DNA from: Glaucostegus cemiculus
Lineage: Eukaryota
Length of the DNA stretch: 64,000 nt
Assembly (NCBI GenBank): GCA_976551045.1
Contig: CDPCPM010000018.1
Coordinates: 1,178,001-1,242,000, forward strand
Direction of reading: 5' to 3'
Position 1 is the first letter of the stretch, and each line of letters starts with the position of its first letter. Both the position numbers and the translations under genes were made by a program. The notes below the pieces were generated by a model. The model searched no databases and had not been told where the DNA came from. It saw only the letters and a list, made by a program, of their open reading frames with translations. Shown here in pieces: positions 33,801 through 62,200 of the stretch.

Positions 33801-35239
33801 AAAGACATATCTTATTCTCCATACTCTGTCACCATATTGAGCAAAAAAGTTTCAGCCGGCAATTACAAGTGACATAAATGTGATTGGATAAAAGTGATTG
33901 AGATGTCGTTCCATTATTCCCCGCAGACATCGATGAATGTGCAACCAACACATCAAACTGTCAACAAAATTGCAGCAACACAATTGGAAGCTTCCTTTGC
34001 GGATGTAATCCAGGCTACAGCATCAATGTGACCAATAGTTCAGTTTGTGATGGTGAGATATTTCCCAACCATTTATTTTCTCTGACATGGAAAATATAAC
34101 TGAATGTGTCATTTAAAGTCAAGGTGGTCCAGGTTTGAACACAGTCACATTAAAATTGGATGAAAGGCTAGAGATTTTCCTTTCGATTCCTCTGTGCAGC
34201 CAAAAATTTAATTCAGTTCAATTGTAAAAGTCCTGGACCTCTATCTGAGCATTGGTTGCAAAAGATCAAAATTCGTTTCATGTTATCCTGTGAATTATAA
34301 AAGTAGAAGTGGCTATGTCAAATAAATTCAATAAACTTAGCTGCTGATGGTTTTTATTATAATGGAAATATAGTTTGAGAATCATTGCTCTCTACTGTTG
34401 TTACTGTGCAGGGCATCCTTCACGCCATTGTAGAGCATAACATTTATTGAGAGTCTTCCTCTTGGCATAATGTAACTAGTAAGCAAGTGTTTGACATGTC
34501 ATTCACATTTTTTCTCCAGACATTGATGAATGTGCAACCAACACATCGAACTGTCAACAAATCTGCACCAATAGAATCGGAAGCTTCCTGTGCAGTTGTA
34601 ACCCTGGCTTCAGTGTCAACGTGACCAATGCTTCGATTTGTGATGGTAGGAATATGCAAAGTCATAGTTTCAGGCAGATTGCAAAGAATATTGAATGTGG
34701 CAGTTGGGTCCCATAGATTCTCCTACTCTCTGAACCAAATGAATTCTGCTAGCGCAACAATGAAAGATACAGAATATCAGTTCATATTCAGTCAGTTTTC
34801 ACTATTGAGATATTTCTGCAGCAGAAAGAATATTAAAAATTAAGGAAAATTATAATATCTGAAGGAATGAATGTTTCCACAATTTTTAATCCTGTGTTTT
34901 TGAATTCCAAATTGTGAATTTCCAATTTACAGAATGGCTTGTATTTCACGAGAGACAGTGTAAGATGTGTAGGCATTCTGATGTGAATGATCATCGTAGT
35001 GAAGAGTGTCAAGGGCTCAGGATGTTAATTCGTGTCATGTCAAATTAATACTTCTGAGGAAGACAATGCAACTATTCTCATGCACCTGTAAAGACATATC
35101 ATATTCTCCATACTGTTATGAAGTAGCTTACTATAGGCCAATATCCCTTTTAGATGGGACATCGTGAGTGTGTGCAACGTATTACGTCAACAGAAGATAA
35201 GACTAACGTGATGAGGTCATTACAAGAAAGAAAAAGATA

Positions 35240-35270
<31 letters not shown>

Positions 35271-38200
35271 TGGAAAGAGAGAAGAAGGAGAGATGGCAGC
35301 TTGTTTTGTTTCTGTCGATGGATGAAGGACAGTAACTGTGTTTGTCACTATAATCCGTGGATGGATTTCTGGAGTAGTCCAGTGGAGTTCACTTTGTCGG
35401 TAACCTGTAGAAGGGCACAGGTGTTTGCGTGGACAACCACATTTTGGATGCTCTTCAGAGTGGCAGATACTGTGGAACAAAGTGACGGAATTCACTTTGC
35501 TGCTAACCTGTAGAAGAACGCAGGTATTTGCATGCACATTCACGATCAAGGAGTTTTCGGGGTGAGAAAGTCACTACCGAGTAAGCCCTGAAGTGTCATT
35601 TGAGTTTCGAGTGGAACATTCGGATTTCGTGAATCCTCTCTAATCTCTCTCTATATCTATGTTTTGTCTTTGGTGGACGGTGCTTGTGAAGAAGCCTTTA
35701 TTTGTGTCATCTTACGGCTTACTGAACTGAACTTGAAGATCTAATTCCTGGACTTTGAGTTTAGGAATTCGACACGCACACACGACGAGTAGTTTTGGGG
35801 TTATAGTTTAAGATTCTAACATTTTATTGTGTACTAATATACTAACTTTTTATTCTTATTTTACGTATTATCAGATGTAGTTATTAATAAAGTAGTTTTA
35901 ACACTGAAGTACGACTTGGTGTGCTTCTTTTGTTGCTGGTTTCGTAACAAAATTGGGGGCTCGTCCGGGATCTTCCCAAGATTAATGAGTGTCGTTCTGG
36001 GATCCAGTCCAAAGATTTGGCTTGCAGTCAAACTTAAGACTGGTACTGGAGGTCTGAGTTTGGACATTGGGGTTGGTCCAATACATTTTCTTAATTGGCG
36101 TGTGTGTGGAAACCAGTAGCAATGGAGGTGTTTATGAAAAAACCCACCCCAAGTGGATTGCAGAGAATGAAGAAGTCTGAATTATTAATTCTTGCTACAG
36201 AGCTAAAACTTACGACAGTAACACAATCTATGAGAAAAGCAGATATCCAGAAAATAATAGCTGGTCATTATGTGAAGATGCAAGTGTTTGAAGAGGGAGT
36301 AGTAAAACAATTTCCTGGCAGTGAACAAGCGATTTCTGATGCCCAAATTCAGTTAGCAAAGATAGAGGCAGAAACAAAACAAGCTGCCATCTCTCCTTCT
36401 TCTCTCTTTCCATCTGTCTGTCTCTCTCTCTCTCTCTTATCTTTTTCTTTCTTGTAATGACCTCATCACGTTAGTCTTATCTTCTGTTGACGTAATACGT
36501 TGCACACACACACAATGTCCCATCTAAAAGGGATATTGGCCTATAGTAAGCTACTTCGTAACAATACTCTGTCACCATATTGAGCAAAAAAGTTTCAGCC
36601 GGCAATTACAAGTGACATAAATGTGATTGGATAAAAGTGATTGAGATGTCGTTCCATTATTCCCCGCAGACATCGATGAATGTGCAACCAACACATCAAA
36701 CTGTCAACAAATTTGCAGCAACACAACTGGAAGCTTCTTTTGCGGATGTAATCCAGGCTACAGCATCAATGTGACCAATAGTTCAGTTTGTGATGGTGAG
36801 ATATTTCCCAACCATTTATTTTCTCTGACATGGAAAATATAATTGAATGTGTCATTTAAAGTCAAGGTGGTCCAGGAATGAACACAGTCACATTAAAATT
36901 GGATGAAAGGCTAGAGATTTTCCTTTCGATTCCTCTGTGCAGCCAAAAATTTAATTCAGTTCAATTGTCAAAGTCCAGGACCTCTATCTGACCATTGGTT
37001 ACAAAAGATCAAAATTCGTTTCATGTTATCCTGTGAATCATAAAAGTAGAAGCTGCAATGTCAAATAAATTCAATAAACTTAGCTGGTGATGGTTTTTAT
37101 TATAATGGAAATGTATTTTGAGAATCATTGCCCTCTACTGTTGTTACTGTGCAGGGCATCCTTCACACCATTGTAGAGCATAACATTTATTGAGAGACTT
37201 CCTGTTGGCATAAGGTAACGAGTAAGCAAGTGTTTGACAGGTCATTCACATTTTTCCTCCAGACATTGATGAATGTGCAACCAACACATCGAACTGTCAA
37301 CAAATCTGCACCAACACAATCGGAAGCTTCCTGTGCAGTTGTAACCCTGGCTTCAGTGTCAACGTGACCAATGCTTCGATTTGTGATGGTAGGAATACGC
37401 AAATAGATAGTTTCCAGCAAATTGCAAAGAATATTGAATGTGGCAGTTGGGTCCCATAGATTCTCCTACTCTCTGAACCAAATGAATTCTGCTCCCGCAA
37501 CAATGAAAGATACAGAATAACAGTTCATCCTCAGTCAGTTTTCACTATTGAAATATTTCTGCAGCCGAAAGAATATTAAAAAATAAAGGAAAATTATAAT
37601 ATCTGAAGGAATGAAACTTTCCACAATTTTTAATCCTGTGTTTTTGAATTCCAAATTGTGAATTTCCAATTTACACAATGGCTTGTATTTCACGAGAGAC
37701 AGTGTAAGATGTGTAGGCATTCTGACGTGAATGATCATCGTAGTGAAGAGTGTCATTGGCACAGGATGTTAATTTGTGTCATGTCAAATTGATACTTCTC
37801 AGGAAGACAATGCAACTATTGTCATGCACCTGTAAAGACATATCATATTCTCCATACTCTGTCACCATATTGAGCAAAAAAGTTTCAGCCGGCAATTACA
37901 AGTGACATAAATGTGATTGGATAAAAGTGATTGAGATGTCGTTCCATTATACCCCGCAGACATCGATGAATGTGCAACCAACACATCAAACTGTCAACAA
38001 AATTGCAGCAACACAATTGGAAGCTTCCTTTGCGGATGTAATCCAGGCTACAGCATCAATGTGACCAATAGTTCAGTTTGTGATGGTGAGATATTTCCCA
38101 ACCATTTATTTTCTCTGACATGGAAAATATAACTGAATGTGTCATTTAAAGTCAAGGTGGTCCAGGAATGAACACAGTCACATTAAAATTGGATGAAAGG

Positions 38201-41200
38201 CTAGAGATTTTCCTTTCGATTCCTCTGTGCAGCCAAAAATTTAATTCAGTTCAATTGTAAAAGTCCTGGACCTCTATCTGACCATTGGTTGCAAAAGATC
38301 AAAATTCGTTTCATGTTATCCTGTGAATTATAAAAGTAGAAGTGGCTATGTCAAATAAATTCAATAAACTTAGCTGCTGATGGTTTTTATTATAATGGAA
38401 ATATAGTTTGAGAATCATTGCTCTCTACTGTTGTTACTGTGCAGGGCATCCTTCACGCCATTGTAGAGCATAACATTTATTGAGAGTCTTCCTCTTGGCA
38501 TAATGTAACTAGTAAGCAAGTGTTTGACACGTCATTCACATTTTTTCTCCAGACATTGATGAATGTGCAACCAACACATCGAACTGTCAACAAATCTGCA
38601 CCAACACAATCGGAAGCTTCCTGTGCAGTTGTAACCCTGGCTTCAGTGTCAACGTGACCAATGCTTCGATTTGTGATGGTAGGAATATGCAAAGTCATAG
38701 TTTCAGGCAGATTGCAAAGAATATTGAATGTGGCAGTTGGGTCCCATAGATTCTCCTACTCTCTGAACCAAATGAATTCTGCTACCGCAACAATGAAAGA
38801 TACAGAATATCAGTTCATCCTCAGTCAGTTTTCACTATTGAGATATTTCTGCAGCAGAAAGAATATTAAAAATTAAGGAAAATTATAATATCTGAAGGAA
38901 TGAATGTTTCCACAATTTTTAATCCTGTGTTTTTGAATTCCAAATTGTGAATTTCCAATTTACAGAATGGCTTGTATTTCACGAGAGACAGTGTAAGATG
39001 TGTAGGCATTCTGATGTGAATGATCATCGTAGTGAAGAGTGTCAAGGGCTCAGGATGTTAATTTGTGTCATGTCAAATTAATACTTCTGAGGAAGACAAT
39101 GCAACTATTCTCATGCACCTGTAAAGACATATCATATTCTCCATACTGTTATGAAGTAGCTTACTATAGGCCAATATCCCTTTTAGATGGGACATCGTGT
39201 GTGTGTGCAACGTATTACGTCAACAGAAGATAAGACTAACGTGATGAGGTCATTACAAGAAAGAAAAAGATAAGAGAGAGAGAGAGAGAGACAGACAGAT
39301 GGAAAGAGAGAAGAAGGAGAGATGGCAGCTTGTTTTGTTTCTGTCGATGGATGAAGGACAGTAACTGTGTTTGTCACTATAATCCGTGGATGGATTTCTG
39401 GAGTAGTCCAGTGGAGTTCACTTTGTCGGTAACCTGTAGAAGGGCACAGGTGTTTGCGTGGACAACCACATTTTGGATGCTCTTCAGAGTGGCAGATACT
39501 GTGGAACAAAGTGACGGAATTCACTTTGCTGCTAACCTGTAGAAGAACGCAGGTATTTGCATGCACATTCACGATCAAGGAGTTTTCGGGGTGAGAAAGT
39601 CACTACCGAGTAAGCCCTGAAGTGTCATTTGAGTTTCGAGTGGAACATTCGGATTTCATGAATCCTCTCTAATCTCTCTCTATATCTATGTTTTGTCTTT
39701 GGTGGACGGTGCTTGTGAAGAAGCCTTTATTTGTGTCATCTTACGGCTTACTGAACTGAACTTGAAGATCTAATTCCTGGACTTTGAGTTTAGGAATTCG
39801 ACACGCACACACGACGAGTAGTTTTGGGGTTATAGTTTAAGATTCTAACATTTTATTGTGTACTAATATACTAACTTTTTATTCTTATTTTACGTATTAT
39901 CAGATGTAGTTATTAATAAAGTAGTTTTAACACTGAAGTACGACTTGGTGTGCTTCTTTTGTTGCTGGTTTCGTAACAAAATTGGGGGCTCGTCCGGGAT
40001 CTTCCCAAGATTAATGAGTGTCGTTCTGGGATCCAGTCCAAAGATTTGGCTTGCAGTCAAACTTAAGACTGGTACTGGAGGTCTGAGTTTGGACATTGGG
40101 GTTGGTCCAATACATTTTCTTAATTGGCGTGTGTGTGGAAACCAGTAGCAATGGAGGTGTTTATGAAAAAACCCACCCCAAGTGGATTGCAGAGAATGAA
40201 GAAGTCTGAATTATTAATTCTTGCTACAGAGCTAAAACTTACGACAGTAACACAATCTATGAGAAAAGCAGATATCCAGAAAATAATAGCTGGTCATTAT
40301 GTGAAGATGCAAGTGTTTGAAGAGGGAGTAGTAAAACAATTTCCTGGCAGTGAACAAGCGATTTCTGATGCCCAAATTCAGTTAGCAAAGATAGAGGCAG
40401 AAACAAAACAAGCTGCCATCTCTCCTTCTTCTCTCTTTCCATCTGTCTGTCTCTCTCTCTCTCTCTTATCTTTTTCTTTCTTGTAATGACCTCATCACGT
40501 TAGTCTTATCTTCTGTTGACGTAATACGTTGCACACACACACAATGTCCCATCTAAAAGGGATATTGGCCTATAGTAAGCTACTTCGTAACAATACTCTG
40601 TCACCATATTGAGCAAAAAAGTTTCAGCCGGCAATTACAAGTGACATAAATGTGATTGGATAAAAGTGATTGAGATGTCGTTCCATTATTCCCCGCAGAC
40701 ATCGATGAATGTAAAACCAACACATCAAACTGTCAACAAATTTGCAGCAACACAATTGGAAGCTTCTTTTGCGGATGTAATCCAGGCTACAGCATCAATG
40801 TGACCAATAGTTCAGTTTGTGATGGTGAGATATTTCCCAACCATTTATTTTCTCTGACATGGAAAATATAATTGAATGTGTCATTTAAAGTCAAGGTGGT
40901 CCAGGAATGAACACAGTCACATTAAAATTGGATGAAAGGCTAGAGATTTTCCTTTCGATTCCTCTGTGCAGCCAAAAATTTAATTCAGTTCAATTGTAAA
41001 AGTCCTGGACCTCTATCTGACCATTGGTTGCAAAAGATCAAAATTCGTTTCATGTTATCCTGTAGAAGCGGCAATGTCAAATAAATTCAATAAACTTAGC
41101 TGGTGATGGTTTTTATTATACTGGAAATATATTTTGAGAATCATTGCACTCTACTGTTGTTACTGTGCAGGGCATCCTTCACGCCATTGTAGAGCATAAC

Positions 41201-53200: not shown

Positions 53201-56200
53201 ACATAGGTTATTGTGCCCTGTGAACTAAATGAATTCGGGCACCTTAATAATGAATTAAGAAGAATATCAGTTCATTCTAAGTGAATATTCACTATAGATA
53301 TGTTTCTAATTTCCAGTTTTTATTTCTGAGTCAGTGAATTTCAAATTGTGAATTTCCATTTTTCAATATTTCTTGAATTTCACCAAAGGCAATTTATAAT
53401 TTTCAAGTACTGTGACTTTAATGATCAATGTAACCAAGAATGTCATGTACTCACTTGGTTATTTTGTGTGATGTCAAAGTAATTTTTTTGAGGTAGGCAG
53501 GTGTATTGATTACTTTGCACCTGTTAAGGCACATCATATTCTCTGTAGTATTTCATGATATTGAGAGACAAAATTTCAGCTGTCAAATACAAATGACATA
53601 AAAGTGATTGGATAAAAGTGATTGAGATGTTGTTCCACTATTCACTGCAGACATCGATGAATGCGCAACCAACACATCAAACTGTCAACAAGTCTGCACC
53701 AACACAATTGGAAGCTTCATGTGCAGTTGTAATCCAGGCTTCAGCATCAACGTGACCAATACTTCAGTTTGTGTTGGTGAGGTTATGCCCAAACATTTAT
53801 TTTCTCAGATTTTGAAATTGAAGTTTAATGTGTCTTTTGAAATTGAGGTGGTCCAGAAATGAATTTAGTCACATTAATATTTGATGAAAAATGATATATT
53901 TTCTTTCTCTGTGATATTTCAGTGCAGCAATAAATATACTACAGCTTAGTTTTAAGACTCACGGAAAAATGTCCTACCTTATGGTTGGTAAACTTCAAAA
54001 AACTTTTAAAGTTTACCTCTGAATTATAATGTAATACCTGCAGTTTATAATAATACTGGCATTTCACCAAAGGCTAAGTAAAATTCAAATTACTTTGTTG
54101 CCAATGATCAATGTCACAAAGGTGGCTTAAACTCAGCTGGTAGTGGTTTGTAAAGCCATGGAAATGTATTTTGAGAAGCATTGTTCCATACACTGGATTG
54201 TCACTGTGCAGGGCAACCTTAAATCCATTGTAGATCAGAAGATTTATTGAGAGAGTTCCTGCTGGGAAAGGGCAAATGCTAAGCAAGTATTTGATATGTC
54301 ATTCACTTCTTTCCCTCCAGACATTGATATTAAGAAATAGATGTAAATGATAATATCTGAAGGAAGTTATATTTCCACAATTATTATTCATGAGTCAGCA
54401 AATTCAAAAATCATGAACTTCCATTTTACAGCATTCGTTGAATTTCACCAAAGGCAGTTTAACATGTGAAAGTACTGTGACGTTAATGATCAAGATGTCC
54501 AAGAGTGTCATGCACTCACCTGGTTGTGTTTTGCAATGTCAAAGTAAGACCTTTGAGGAAGGCAGGTGTAAGGATTGTCTTGAACCTGTAAATTCACATT
54601 ATATTCTCTATAGCTTTTCACGATAGTATGAGAGAAAATTTCAGCTGGTAAACAATGACACAGAAGTGATTGGAAAGAAGTGAATGAGACGTCATTCCTT
54701 TATTCCCTGCACACATCGATGAATGCGCAACCAACACATCAAACTGTCAGAATTAGAATCAGAATTAGAATCAGTTTTATTGTCACAACCATATACACAT
54801 ATACAGTATGCATAGGAGCGAGATACCGTCCTCCACAGGTGCACGTCACATTAAGTATTAAACAGAAGAGACACACAGACACACATTGAAAAAGAACATT
54901 AAAACCACGAAAATGAATTTAAATTCTGCAGCTTAAATAAATAGTTTTAAAATGAGTGAACCGTCAACAAATCTGCACCAACACAATTGGAAGCTTCATG
55001 TGCAGTTGTAAACCAGGCTTCAGCGTCAACATGAACAATACTTCAGTTTGTAATGGTGAGATGTTTCACAAATATATCTTCTTTCAAGTGTGGAAAATAA
55101 AATTTAATGTGTCTTTTAAAACTGAGGTAGTTCAGAAATGAATCTTATGTCTCATTAATGCAATATGTCATTCAATCAACTCATCGAAATGTGAACAAAT
55201 CTGCACCAACACAATCGGAAGCTTGCTGCACAGTGGCTTCAGCACCAACGTGACCAGTACTTAGATTTGTGATGGAAGGAAGTGGCAAACTCTGTTTCTC
55301 ATACATTGCAAAGAATATTCAATGTGGCAGTTGGGCCTCATAGATTATTGTGCCCTGTGAACTAATTTGATTCTGATATCAGTTGATCCTCAATGTGCCT
55401 TCAATATAGAGTTGTCTCTATGGCAAAAGGAATATTCAGAAATAGAGGTAAATGATAATATCTGAAGGAAGGTAAATTTCAACAATTTTTATTCATGAGT
55501 CAGTGAATTTCAAACTGTGAATTTCCATTTTCAACACTGCTTGAATATCACCAAAGGCAGTTTATATAGTGTGATGTTAGTGATCAAAGTAGCCAAGAGT
55601 GCCATACACTCACCCGGTTATGTTATGCAATGTCAAAGTAATACTCTTGTGGAAGGCAGGTGTATTGATAGTCTTGCCCCTGTAAAGATACATCATACAG
55701 GCTGAAGATAATCAATACTATTTCATAACATTAAGAGACAAATTTTTAGTTGGCAAAGACAAATGACATAAAAATGATTGGATAAAAGTGATTGGATAAA
55801 AGTGATTGAGATGTTGTTCCGTTATGTACTGCAGATATCGATGAATGTGCAACAAAAACATCAAACTGTCAACAAATTTGCAGCAACACAATTGGAAGTT
55901 TCATGTGCAGTTGTAATCCAGGCTTCAGCATCAACGTGACCAATAGTTCAGTTTGTGATGGTGAGATGTTTCCTAAACATTAATTTTTTTGGATATGGAA
56001 AATAAAATTTAATGTGTCTTTTAAACCTGTGAACCAGAAGTGAATTTTAGTCATGTTAATATTGGAAAACAATATCTTTTCTTTCTCTGTGACTCTGCAG
56101 TATAGTCACTAATCCTTGACAGTTTAATTTTAAAAATCAAGGTAAAATGTCCTACCTGATGGTATTTAAACTTCTAAAATCTCTTCATGTTATCCTGTGA

Positions 56201-59200
56201 AATAACAGATTTGTTATAATGGGTGATTTCAACTTCCCAAATATAGATTGGGACATGCTTAGTGCCAAAGGTTTAGAAGGGAACAAGTTTGTTAAATATG
56301 TCCAGGATGGATTCCTGACGCAGTATGTTGATAGGCCAACTAGAGGGAATGCCGTGTTGGATCTAGTTTTAGGAAATGAACTGGGACAGCTGAGCGATCT
56401 ACTGGTGGGTGAGCATTTGGGGGACAGTGATCATTGCTCCATAACCTTTAGAATTGTCATGGACAGGTTTAGGTGCAGAGAGGACAGGAAGATATTTAAT
56501 TGGGGAAGGGCGGACTATGCAGCTATAAGGAGAGAACTTGGGGGTGTAAATTGGGAAGTCCTTTTTGTAGGGAAATGTACTATGGAGATGTGGATGATGT
56601 TCAGGGATCTTTTACAGGATGTTAGGGATAAATATGTCCCGGCGAGACAGAGAAGGAATGGCAGGGTGAAGGAACTGTGGGTGACCAGAGAGGTGGAACG
56701 ACTGGTTAGGAGGAAGAAGGCAGTGTACGTAAGGTGTAAGCAGCAAGGCTCAGACAGGGCCCGTGAGGAATATAGTGTAGTGAAGAAGGAACTTAAGAAA
56801 GGACTGAGAAGAGCTAGAAGGGGACATGAAAAGACCTTGGCTAGTAGGTTTAAGGAAAATCCCAAGGCTTTTTTCTCGTACGTGAAGGGCAGAAGGATGG
56901 ATAGGGTAAAGGTAGGTCCGATTAAAGACAAAGGTGGGAGGATGTGCCTGGAGGCGGTGGAAGTAGGAGAGGTTCTAAATGAATACTTCTCTTCAGTATT
57001 CACCAAGGTGTCTTGATGACGTGGTAGAGAGTACTGGTAAGGGTAATGTTCTCGACTATGTTATCAAGAGGGAGGATGTGTAGAAGTTGTTAAATAATAT
57101 CAAGACAGGTAAGTCTCCGGGGCCTGATGGTATATTCCCCAGGCTGCTTCAAGAGGCGAGGGGGGAAACTGTTGATCCACTGGTGAGGATCTTTGTTGTC
57201 CACAGGGATGGTGCTGGAGGATTGGCAGGTAGCAAATGTTGTCCCCTTGTTCAAGAAAGTTAGTAGGGATAGTCCAGCGAATTACAGACCGGTGAGTCTC
57301 ACGTCTGTGGTGGGTAAGCTGTTAGAAAGGATTCTTAGGGATAGGATCTATGAACATCTGGAAAGTTGATTAGGGACAGTCAGCATGGCTTTGTGAAGGG
57401 AAGATCTTGCCTCACGAGCCTGATAGAATTCTTTGAGGAGGTGACGAGGAAGCTTGATGAGGGCAGTGCAGTGGATGTGGTCTACATAGATTCTAGTAAG
57501 GCGTTCGATAAGGTTCCTCATGGTAGGCTTCTTCAGAAGGGCAGAGGGTCAAGGCATCCAGAGAAGATTGGCTGTGTGGATCAGGAATCGGCTTGCTTGT
57601 AGAAAGCAGAGGGTTGTGGTGGAGGGAGTGCCCTCGGATTGGAGGACTGTGACTAGTGGTGTCCCGCAGGGATCGATTCTGGGACCTCTACTCTTTGTTA
57701 TATTTATAGATGACTTAGATGAAGGGGTGGAAGGATGGGTTAGTAAATTTGTGGATGACACCAAGATCGGCGGTGTGGTGGATAGTGTGGAGGACTGTCA
57801 GAGCTTACAGAGGGATATTGATAGGACGCAGAGCTGGGCGGACAGGTGTCAGATGGAGTCTAATCTGAAGATGTGTGAGGTGGTGCACTTTGGTAGGACA
57901 AACTCCATGGCAGAGTACAAGGTAAATGGCAAGATACTTGGCAGCGTAGAGAGCAGAGGGATCTGGGGGTTCATATCAACAGTTCACTCAAAGTTGCCTC
58001 GCAGCTGGATAGGGCAGTTAAGAAGGCTTATGGGATGCTAGCTTTTATAAATCATGGGATTGAGTTCAAGAGCAGAGAGGTGATGGTGCTGCTTTACAAA
58101 ACTCTATTTAGACCGCACTTAGAGTATTGTGTTAAGTTCTGGTCACCACATTATAGGAAGGATGTGGAGGTGTTGGAGAGGGTACAGAGGCAAATTACCA
58201 GGATGATGCCTGGATTAGAGGGTATGGAATATGAAGAGAGGCTTAAGGTGCTAGGGCTTTACTCGTTGGAGAGGAGGAGGATAAGAAGAGACTTGATAGA
58301 GGTGTATAAAATATTGAGAGGAATAGATAGAGTAGACAGCCAGTGCCTCTTTCCCAGGGCACAGATACTCAAGATGAGAGGGAATGGCTTTAAGGTATTG
58401 GGTGGAAAGTTCAGGGGAGATGTCAGAGGGAAGTTTTTCACCCAGAGAGTGGTTGGCACATGGAATGCGCTGCCTGGGGTGGTGGTGGAGGCAGATACAT
58501 TGGACAAGTTCAAGAGATTGTTAGATAGGCATATGGAGGAATGTGGGATAGAGGGATATGTGGGAGGAAAGAGTTAGATCGTGTGAGGTTTGATGGACAA
58601 CACAACATGGTGGGCCGAAGGGCCTGTTTAGTGCTGTATTGTTCTACGGTTCTATGGAAGTATAAATATAGTTGTAGTGTATAATAATTTTGCCATTTCA
58701 CCAAAGTGTATGTAAACTTCAAAGCACTCTGATCATTGATGAATTTCATGAAGAGTGGCACATACTTAGTTGGTAATGGTCCTAATCTCAGGGAAATATT
58801 TTTGAGAAACACTGCTCCATACCCTGTGTTGACACTATACAGTGCATCCTGCAATCTCATAGATCAGAACATTAATTGGCAGAGTTTCTGTTGGCAAAGG
58901 CAAATGCTAAGCAAGTGTTTGATTGTCATGCACTCCTTTTCCTCCAGACATCGATGAATGTGACACCACCACATCAAACTGTCAACAAGTCTGCACCAAC
59001 ACAATCGGAAGTTTCATGTGCAGTTGTAACCCTGGCTTCAGCATCAACATGTCCGATACTTCGCGTTGTGATGGTGGGATATTTTCCAAATATATATTTT
59101 CTCAGATTTTGGAAATAATATTTAATGTGGTAGTTCATTCTGGATTTGAATACTGAGGCAGTCCGGAAATGAATTTTAGTCACCTTAATATTGAATGAAA

Positions 59201-62200
59201 AATGATTCATTTCTTCCCCTGTGATACCTCATAATAGTGATATGTTACCACAGAAATATTTATTAAAATCATGTTAAAATGTCATATATTATGACAGTTA
59301 AACTTCTAATATCTATTCATGTTATCCTGTGAAATATTAATCTTATACCAGCAGTATATAATAATTGTGCCACTTCACCAAAGGGTATGTAAACTTTACA
59401 ACATTGATTATTGGCATTAAAGTATTTTGAAGAGTGGCACACACTCACTTGGTAATGATGTGTAATGTCAGGAAAATATAGTTGAGAATCACTGCTCCAT
59501 ACACAGTGCTGCCACTGTACAGTGCATTCTGAAATCTATTGTGGATCAGAACATCAATGGACAGAGTTTCTGTTGATGAAGGCAAATTCTAAGCAAGTTT
59601 AAAATGTCATTCACTCCTTTTCCTCCAGACGTCGATGAATGTGCAACCAACACATCGAACTGTCAACAAATCTGTACCAACACGATTGGAAGCTTCATCT
59701 GCAGTTGTAACCCTGGCTTCAGCATCAATGTGTCCAATACTTCGCTTTGTGATGGTGGGATGTTTTGCAAACTCATGTTTTCTCAGATTCAGTAAAAAAA
59801 AAATTTAATGTGGCAGCTCTGACTGTCTTTTAAAAATGAGATGTTCCTAAAATCACAAAAAGTCACCTTAAAATTGGATGAAATTGGATATCATTTCTTT
59901 TTTTCTGTGATACATCACAGCAGTGATATGTTACCACAGAATTAATTATTAAAATCAATGTAGAATCTCATATCTTATGGTTTATAAACTTCTAAAATCT
60001 CTTGAAGGAAAAAAAACAAGATGCTGGAGGAACTCAGCAGGTTAGGCAGCATCCATGGAGAAAAGCAGTCAACGTTTTGGGTCAGGACCCTTCTTCAGGA
60101 CTTAAGATAGGAAAAGGGGAAAACAAAGCAGTGATAGTTGGACAAAAGAAGGGAGGCAGGGTGGGCACAAGGTGGTGATAAGTAGATACAGCTAAGAGGT
60201 AGTGATAAGCAAATGTGGGGGAGGAGGGGAGAGCAGATCCAGCAGGGGATGGGTCAAAGCTATTGAGGCAGGCGCCCCATGGGGAGAGGGGAGGAGAAAA
60301 AAGTGATAGGCTAGGAAATGGAAAAAATTAGAAGATGCATGGTGGGGGTCGGAGGGGATGGTTTACTTAAGGTGGGAGAATTCAATGTTCATGCCATTAG
60401 GCTGTAAGGTCCCAATCAGGGTAAACTGTTGAATGTTTAGCAAGTAAATCTTCCACAATTCTTCACATTACCCTGTGAAATCTGGTAATGAAACCTGAAT
60501 TTTTCAATATTTTGACCATTTCACCATAGGGTATAAAATCTTGATAGTACTGTGATGCCAATGATCAAAATTAGCAATGATTGGCACAAACTCAGCTGGT
60601 AATGTAATGTCAAAGCAATATTTTTGAGAAACACAGTTCCATATACCATGTTGCCTCTGGACGGTGACATCCTGTAGTCTTTTATAGATCAGAATATTAA
60701 CTGACAGTCATTCAGTTGGGAAAAACAAACAATGTTGACCTTTGACCTCCCAACCTTCATCCCCCCCCCCCCACTAAAAACACACACACACACACTCTGA
60801 CTATCCCCAATTTTTATGTTACTTCCATGGCAATCTTTGTTGCTGTACTGCGATGGGCAAGGATCTTATAAGCGCTGACACACTATCAGTTGGCAATGAC
60901 ACAGCAGCTGCGAGCTCTGGATTGACATCCTGCAGAGATTCCATTTTAGCGCATGAATGGGAGTGCTAAATGCCGTAGCAACATTCTTCATTTATTTTTG
61001 GTCAATTTTGTGTATTTTGGGGGGAAATGGAAGATATTAGCAACACCTACAGCACACATTTCATGCACCAAGATGGTGAACTCCAGTTTCTCAGGTTATA
61101 CATTCTGTAATAAGAATATTATATTGCAGAATTGAGTCATTCTTGTCATTAAGGAGGTTGAAAGTTTTGACTATATCATAACCTTTCTAAAAAAAGTTTG
61201 CAGTTCCTGAGTTTCAATTTCTCAATGAAATTGTCATATGATATGCATATTGTCTTGAAAGTTCTATATTGATAAAGTTATGTGAAGAAAATAATAACCA
61301 ATAGTAGTCATTTGATATCTGGCTTTGCCTTGCTGGGAGGCAGTGGTCATGGGGTCAGTCAGTCCTTTCAGAGTAACCTAAGCAAATAAATGGAGTGCAA
61401 TGGAGTTTAAGATATTGAGAGGAATAGATAGAGTTAATAGTCAGCGCCTCTTTCCCAGAGTGCAGATGCTCAAGACGAGAGGGCATGCCTTTAAGATAAT
61501 AGGTGAAAAGTATAGTGGAGATGTCAGAGGGAAGTTTTTCACCCAGAGAGTGGTTGGTGCATGGAATGCACTGCCTGGGGTGGTAGTGGAGGTAGATACG
61601 TTGGACAGGTTTAAGAGATTGTTAGATAAGCACATGGAAGAATGTGGAATAGTAGGATATGAGGGTGGAAAGAGTTAGTTTGGGAGATGTTTGTAGGATG
61701 GCACAGCTTGATGGGCCGAAGGGCCTGTTCTGTGCTGTATTGTTCTATTGTTCTATTGTTTGTTCATTTCGAACTCGGTACAGAGAACCACAATTCACCA
61801 GTGGTAAAGCAGGTGAATGCTTACTATGATCAGTAGGCTGTCAGTCAGGTGGGCTGCTTGGTACTGGATGATGTTGACTTTATTGAAAATTATTTCAGGA
61901 CTCATCCAGACAAGTGGAAAGAAGACAGGATGGCATCCCCAAACCCATGGATTCCAATGCATGATAAATTAGGAGGAGAGTCACTGGTTTGGGAATGGGA
62001 GGTGGTTGAGTGGCCGAGAATTGGAAGTAGGGTTGGCAGCAGAACTGAGGGTTGGTTCCTGATGATCAGAAGATATGTCAGCGATCATGGGTCTGGAGCA
62101 GAGGGTTGAGGTGAGGATTTCTTCAGGAGTTTTGTGGTTGTAGGGGATGATTACAGGTGGTGGCTGTTAGATTGGTAGTCATAGGTGGGAGTGGGGGTTG

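Follow-up and report, generated by a model that had tools for sequence, protein, structure and literature searches.

A fold-back element with two U3 ends in an EGF exon array, probably a single aberrant cDNA of an abundant Gypsy family

How can an insertion built from the parts of an LTR retrotransposon come to end in inverted repeats, as a DNA transposon does? This question is raised by a 1450-bp fold-back element at 35114-36563 of the window (the whole 64-kb stretch of DNA analysed here), flanked by ATAC on either side (35110-35113 and 36564-36567). The initial annotation had described it as an 836-bp LTR, a PBS and about 83 codons of gag, followed by the inverted first ~200 bp of the LTR, and had read these as retrotransposon parts rather than as a TIR transposon. 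Both the structure and this reading were confirmed here, the latter by the homology of the gag piece to SCAN-bearing Gypsy gags and by arms that consist of U3. The features are as follows.

34520..34645, + strand: host cbEGF exon, upstream of the element (EGF_CA PF07645, E 3.4e-10, one exon tested)
35110..35113, no strand: left target-site duplication (TSD), ATAC, single in the empty array sites
35114..35949, + strand: complete LTR of 836 bp, its ends forming a 9-bp terminal inverted repeat; the flanks after 35949 are diverse in public contigs
35114..35314, + strand: left arm, bases 1-201 of the LTR, which served as template for the inverted copy (sequence comparison)
35954..35971, + strand: PBS, 18 nt, after a 4-nt spacer that follows the LTR (sequence)
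36122..36373, + strand: start of a Gmr1-like Gypsy gag, first 83-84 codons, 63% identical to P0002/P0003 of Pristis pectinata
36369..36374, + strand: junction, 5-6 bases that fit both gag and the inverted LTR, a putative microhomology (alignment with gag relatives)
36369..36563, - strand: right arm, inverted LTR bases 1-201, 195 bp, terminating in the U3 att end (sequence comparison and contigs)
36564..36567, no strand: right TSD, ATAC (empty array sites)
36670..36795, + strand: host cbEGF exon, 106 bp downstream of the element (exon pattern)
39147..40592, + strand: second copy of the whole element, 99.6% identical, with the same flanks and array position as the first

Compared with the reverse complement of the left arm, the right arm was 95.5% identical over 201 columns (E 2.5e-90), with three substitutions (positions 6, 50 and 54) and an AG tract that is 6 nt shorter on the right. 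The element ends exactly in TG..CA. Its PBS presumably matches tRNA-Pro, and its gag starts with an ATG at 36122, so placed that the junction at 36369 falls within codon 83; this gag piece ends upstream of SCAN, and SCAN, the zinc knuckle and pol are all absent from it. Judging from an AATAAA at 35886, inside the LTR, U3 probably makes up most of the 836 bp. The two direct LTRs and PPT by which canonical elements, TRIMs and LARDs are recognised are replaced here by one LTR and an inverted 195-bp stub. No purine tract lies ahead of the right arm, and without PPT and 3' R, both absent, the element is a dead end for normal retrotransposition as the standard LTR cycle describes it. The window contains two exact copies of the 28-nt junction, against none expected by chance, and an Rfam scan of the window gave no match. 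Within U3 (35384-35543), a 57-nt direct repeat (79%, 103-bp spacing), of which some contigs omit or repeat a unit, is possibly an enhancer duplication. In the predicted RNA of 35114-36563, the arms pair almost fully as a 195-bp duplex (MFE -651 kcal/mol, computed without a shuffle control).

The surroundings of the element allowed its target site to be reconstructed. Positions 691-62640 of the window are a tandem array of near-identical calcium-binding EGF exons, rich in N-x-S/T sites and arranged in ~1.29-kb units of two alternating types. An exon-start pattern located 80 sites, 75 of them stop-free at 126 bp (one at 120 bp) and five for which the script found no donor. The element is intronic and has the same sense as the host gene. 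Matches to its left flank were found at 34 array sites, two filled and 32 empty, and 29 of the 32 empty ones carry one ATAC, the other three having diverged. Because these 29 sites hold a single ATAC, the second ATAC beside the element was gained by duplication, in a single insertion, so that the clean 4-bp TSD and the single insertion claimed at the outset both hold. A decayed LINE, which we take to be CR1-like, lies within an array intron at 56200-58620 (endonuclease and RT pieces), with a shorter related 3' piece near 61400-61750.

The same array accounts for the second copy, which, like the EGF nature of the array, the initial annotation had overlooked. Between the two copies of the element, the differences amount to two substitutions over ~1446 bases and one 4-nt AG indel. 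Their host units are mutual nearest neighbours (10 differences over 900 bases, against 23-27 for the next best) and group as sisters when all 34 array sites are placed in a tree, and the filled sites would lie 2579 bp, or two units, apart if the elements were removed. The second copy was made by a tandem duplication of ~4033 bp that spans two array units; it may also be an assembly artefact. As a sign of mobility it was rejected, given the same site, the same flanks and the sister units. The arms already differed at 2 of 195 positions before this host duplication, and the fold-back therefore predates it. The element copies are closer to each other (~0.14% apart) than their flanks are (~1%), as is expected if other array units convert the flanks and not the element.

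The parent of the element was sought through its gag piece (83 residues), for which a full HMMER scan returned 38 relatives at E values up to 0.001. The best of them, P0002/P0003 (E 1e-23), come from Pristis pectinata, and others from Mobula and Hypanus; a species name was available for six of the nine relatives looked up. Together with the CR1-like LINE, these relatives suggest that the window comes from a cartilaginous fish, probably a ray. SCAN (PF02023) was detected in 4 of the 10 gag relatives scanned, and one relative, P0017, combines a protease with an integrase C-terminal domain, without RT. A SCAN-bearing gag is a feature of Gmr1-like Ty3/Gypsy elements according to the extract of a recent preprint (bioRxiv 10.1101/2025.03.03.638093), and these relatives fit a Gmr1-like Gypsy parent. 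Indeed, the gag N-terminus of the element is homologous to the SCAN-bearing gags of rays, and its TG..CA LTR, PBS and short TSD are likewise those of such elements; it is unlike them in having no pol, PPT or direct 3' LTR and in ending on the right in an inverted U3 stub. Word-index protein searches with the gag piece yielded nothing that passed, among 42 candidates for the longer search and one for the near search. A metagenome scan with P0003 gave one distant locus (28% identity) from 273 stretches, which was left unused. Exact patterns had no match in collections of viral contigs and of genome contigs, neither of which is expected to contain fish DNA. P0002-P0004 carry NCBI names of host proteins (calponin-homology or cilia-associated); they look like mis-annotated retrotransposon gag.

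How the family behaves elsewhere was judged from public sequencing runs, five of which contain part of the stretch, two of them (from one sample) with 82% of its words. Positions 35315-36700 were compared with the contigs of runs X1, X2, X4 and X5, with X3 left out; X4 and X5 held LTR pieces only. Summed depth, which comes from contigs and is not copy number, was ~0.5 million for the LTR, ~0.1 million for PBS-gag and 40-190 for the host flank. In X1, the flanks at the two LTR ends were diverse (31 contigs with an agreement of 0.40, and 36 contigs with 0.42), and an ordinary LTR continuation was found ahead of 36369 in 25 contigs of X1 and 16 of X2. These diverse flanks and normal continuations indicate a parent family that is abundant and has ordinary direct LTRs, and whose U3 end forms the right arm. 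One X2 contig matched 137 flank bases exactly. Among the contigs listed, none crosses the fold-back junction or the gag continuation, and the depth of the junction bin is compatible with both a unique and a multi-copy junction.

Single bases proved more informative than depth as such. At U3 position 26, both arms of both copies share a base, where 99.6-99.8% of the family depth has another, which leaves only 0.24-0.43% for the base of the arms. This shared rare base ties both arms to one source element and excludes two unrelated insertions. Both arms also share a minor base at U3 position 38 (~22% of family depth). More generally, near-private bases leave 0.1-0.4% of family depth (0.12-0.30% for three LTR bases), a residue that includes recurrent mutations too. 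Scaled by an LTR-to-gag ratio of ~5.4, copies of the exact element make up at most ~0.6-1.6% (roughly 1-2%) of gag-bearing copies, a rough ceiling that is based on 17 of the 40 entries listed and holds if the run organism is the source species or very close to it. A dominant fold-back family is thereby excluded, and a small one is not. Of 17 entries, 4 resemble CpG decay, too few and from too incomplete a list for dating the formation of the arms.

The contigs of X1 and X2 also contain single-contig joints (35953/36376, 35475/36492 and 35955/36197). Joints into an inverted U3 stub, distinct from that of the present element, were seen in 2 of the 12 entries listed, in one contig each and at a depth of 5-6. 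One of them links the LTR end and spacer to ~216 U3 bases; this stub exceeds the present arm, and the joint is therefore not a deletion of the present element. Such joints suggest other fold-back or inversion products of the parent family elsewhere in the run organism; they could also be nested antiparallel insertions or assembly chimeras.

The junction itself bears on how the arm arose. The two closest gag relatives keep KIEAE across the break and then read R-E-Q, against T-K-Q in the window. Because KIEAE is kept through the break, the first five bases of the arm also read as the expected gag codons, and the sixth may fit as well; by a hand estimate, a five-base agreement between gag and arm has a chance of ~1 in 128. 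The proteins of these relatives, which belong to another species, thus support a microhomology of 5-6 nt, in line with the short one proposed earlier at the CAGAAA breakpoint in gag. In the same relatives, a repetitive coiled-coil tract begins at the break.

Taken together, we consider it probable that the element is a one-off: an aberrant cDNA, derived from an abundant Gmr1-like Gypsy family, that the integrase of this family inserted and that was later duplicated once with the host array. In a first step, after second-strand transfer, a plus strand (U3-R-U5-PBS) would have been extended into gag, with which the order of the parts agrees. At codon 83-84, its 3' end would then have slipped, via the 5-6-nt microhomology, onto U3 at about base 201 of a plus-strand template, which may have been the 5' end of the same strand or a surplus strong-stop DNA. 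Synthesis that ran off the end of this template would give an exact inverted U3 terminus by one switch. The result would bear two U3 att ends, joined to the host with a 4-bp stagger in what the TSD establishes as one event; the enzyme was presumably integrase. Host repair of one bad viral end usually leaves large duplications or deletions, according to the extract of PMC5041404, and the clean 4-bp TSD found here therefore favours integrase at both ends. Finally, the tandem duplication of two EGF-array units copied the element. The aberrant-cDNA reading needs an integrase that accepts a partly heteroduplex intermediate, for which the open-access and bioRxiv literature offered no paper. The arm difference at position 6, which falls within the 9-bp terminal repeat, also fits a rearrangement after insertion.

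That rearrangement would start from a normal element with its ATAC TSD, in which host replication or repair later switched template twice, from gag to the opposite strand of the 5' LTR and thence back into the right flank by way of the 9-bp repeat in the 3' LTR, with loss of pol and the 3' LTR. The initial annotation had taken the single TSD to exclude any such event, which was an overstatement: the 9-bp terminal repeat is indeed present and includes the position-6 difference, and a second switch that passes through it preserves the TSD. Rare bases common to both arms would likewise be accounted for, and the array is recombination-active. Nevertheless, two coordinated switches are required, the second within 9 bases, and several kb have to be lost; as the arms have already diverged, the event would not be very recent, and no full-length allele accompanies the two filled sites among the 34, both of which are fold-back. 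On these grounds, we regard this course of events as unlikely.

Quite unlikely, in our judgement, is an origin from two donors or a palindromic intermediate, in which integrase joined two sister cDNAs, or a long fold-back dimer, to one host site by their U3 ends and the middle was then lost by microhomology-mediated end joining. Such a route accounts for the two U3 ends and the microhomology at the junction, and since it also leaves one TSD, the single TSD is no bar to it; sister cDNAs of one source would have the rare bases in common, and the longer inverted stub (~216 bases) of the joint described above is in its favour. It requires, however, a chromosome break and its repair, and to our knowledge two-donor integration is documented from in vitro work only. 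The sequence alone does not separate this origin from the slipped plus strand preferred here.

The third possibility, that non-autonomous inverted-LTR elements of this kind form a mobile family with few copies, is the one that the initial annotation had advanced as a new class, should the structure recur at other loci. Since no normal cycle is open to the element, any family would require movement at the DNA level, by integrase or by a Ginger-like transposase. TGTTA ends, TIR-like arms of ~200 bp and a 4-bp TSD lie within the Ginger range as given in the extract of PMC2836005. Against this, the sole second copy in the window is a host duplication with identical flanks, the near-private bases restrict it to the small share of gag-bearing copies given above, itself a rough ceiling, the target CATACT is neither that of Ginger1 (CCGG/CCGT) nor that of Ginger2 (RTATAY), and a transposase is not encoded, besides the missing PPT and 3' R. 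The evidence accordingly lends no support to a mobile class, and such a family appears very unlikely. Two independent insertions in opposite orientation, followed by an internal deletion, had been judged unlikely before and are exceedingly improbable, in spite of a family so abundant that nested or neighbouring copies must be common, given one TSD proven by empty sites and arms that agree in a base, that of U3 position 26, which accounts for no more than 0.4% of family depth.

The preferred origin, a single aberrant cDNA, has a direct importance that is modest, this being a single dead copy duplicated together with its host. It is nonetheless an unusually readable product of its kind, with a TSD proven by empty sites and both ends tied to one source by a shared rare base. 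On balance, two-U3 insertions are likely to form a recurrent class, each member a dead end. It is highly doubtful that fold-back during plus-strand synthesis routinely makes, in one step, a pair of integrase-competent TIRs from one LTR, and that the present element is a member of a small lineage which an integrase-type enzyme has mobilised again at the DNA level; if true, such a lineage would be a living conversion of an LTR element into a Ginger or MITE. Elements of this structure would be called DNA transposons by TIR finders and overlooked by LTR finders. As a speculation, a near-perfect 195-bp U3 hairpin in a host intron might give rise to silencing RNA directed at an abundant family. For the host, an array in which all exons were spliced would encode a very long EGF stalk, evolving in concert.

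Among known systems, DIRS elements are also retroelements with inverted terminal repeats; they use a tyrosine recombinase and are not known to leave an integrase-type TSD. An assignment to DIRS was rejected in view of the proven 4-bp TSD, the Gypsy gag and the PBS. Autointegration gives inversion circles, in which inverted retrotransposon DNA likewise forms before integration and an LTR terminus is joined to an internal site, in the extract of PMC7197481; it was rejected because the junction found here joins internal gag to internal U3. The 'inverted LTR' of PMC8786324 is, in its extract, an LTR in an lncRNA and not a fold-back structure.

Closer parallels come from defective HIV-1 and ASLV proviruses, where strand-transfer errors still integrate, with inversions at ~1-3% in one HIV set (extracts of PMC12657518 and PMC9278108), and where joining of an aberrant end to viral DNA is possible in both orientations (extract of PMC5041404). 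The fold-back element resembles these in being, probably, a template-switch error that nevertheless integrated (PMC12657518, PMC9278108, PMC5041404), and differs from them, as these extracts describe them, in its two U3 att ends and clean integrase TSD. In the open-access and bioRxiv literature, with older subscription literature outside this scope, no insertion with U3 at both ends and a clean TSD was found described.

The resemblance to Ginger1, Ginger2 and TDD is a matter of form. The extract of PMC2836005 gives these transposons TGTNR ends, TIRs of 40-270 bp and a 4-bp TSD, all of which the fold-back element has. It is unlike them in its target hexamer, CATACT, known from one site only, compared with CCGG/CCGT or RTATAY (PMC2836005), and in having no transposase, the start of gag being its sole identified coding part, and no dispersed copies in the window. 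In the same extract, the step from LTR to TIR is called unclear, and two separate LTRs in opposite orientation are proposed for it (PMC2836005). The arms described here are, by contrast, the U3 of a direct-LTR family, for which one source element suffices; TIR-like ends can thus come from a single LTR element, in a way simpler than the two insertions envisaged in that extract (PMC2836005).
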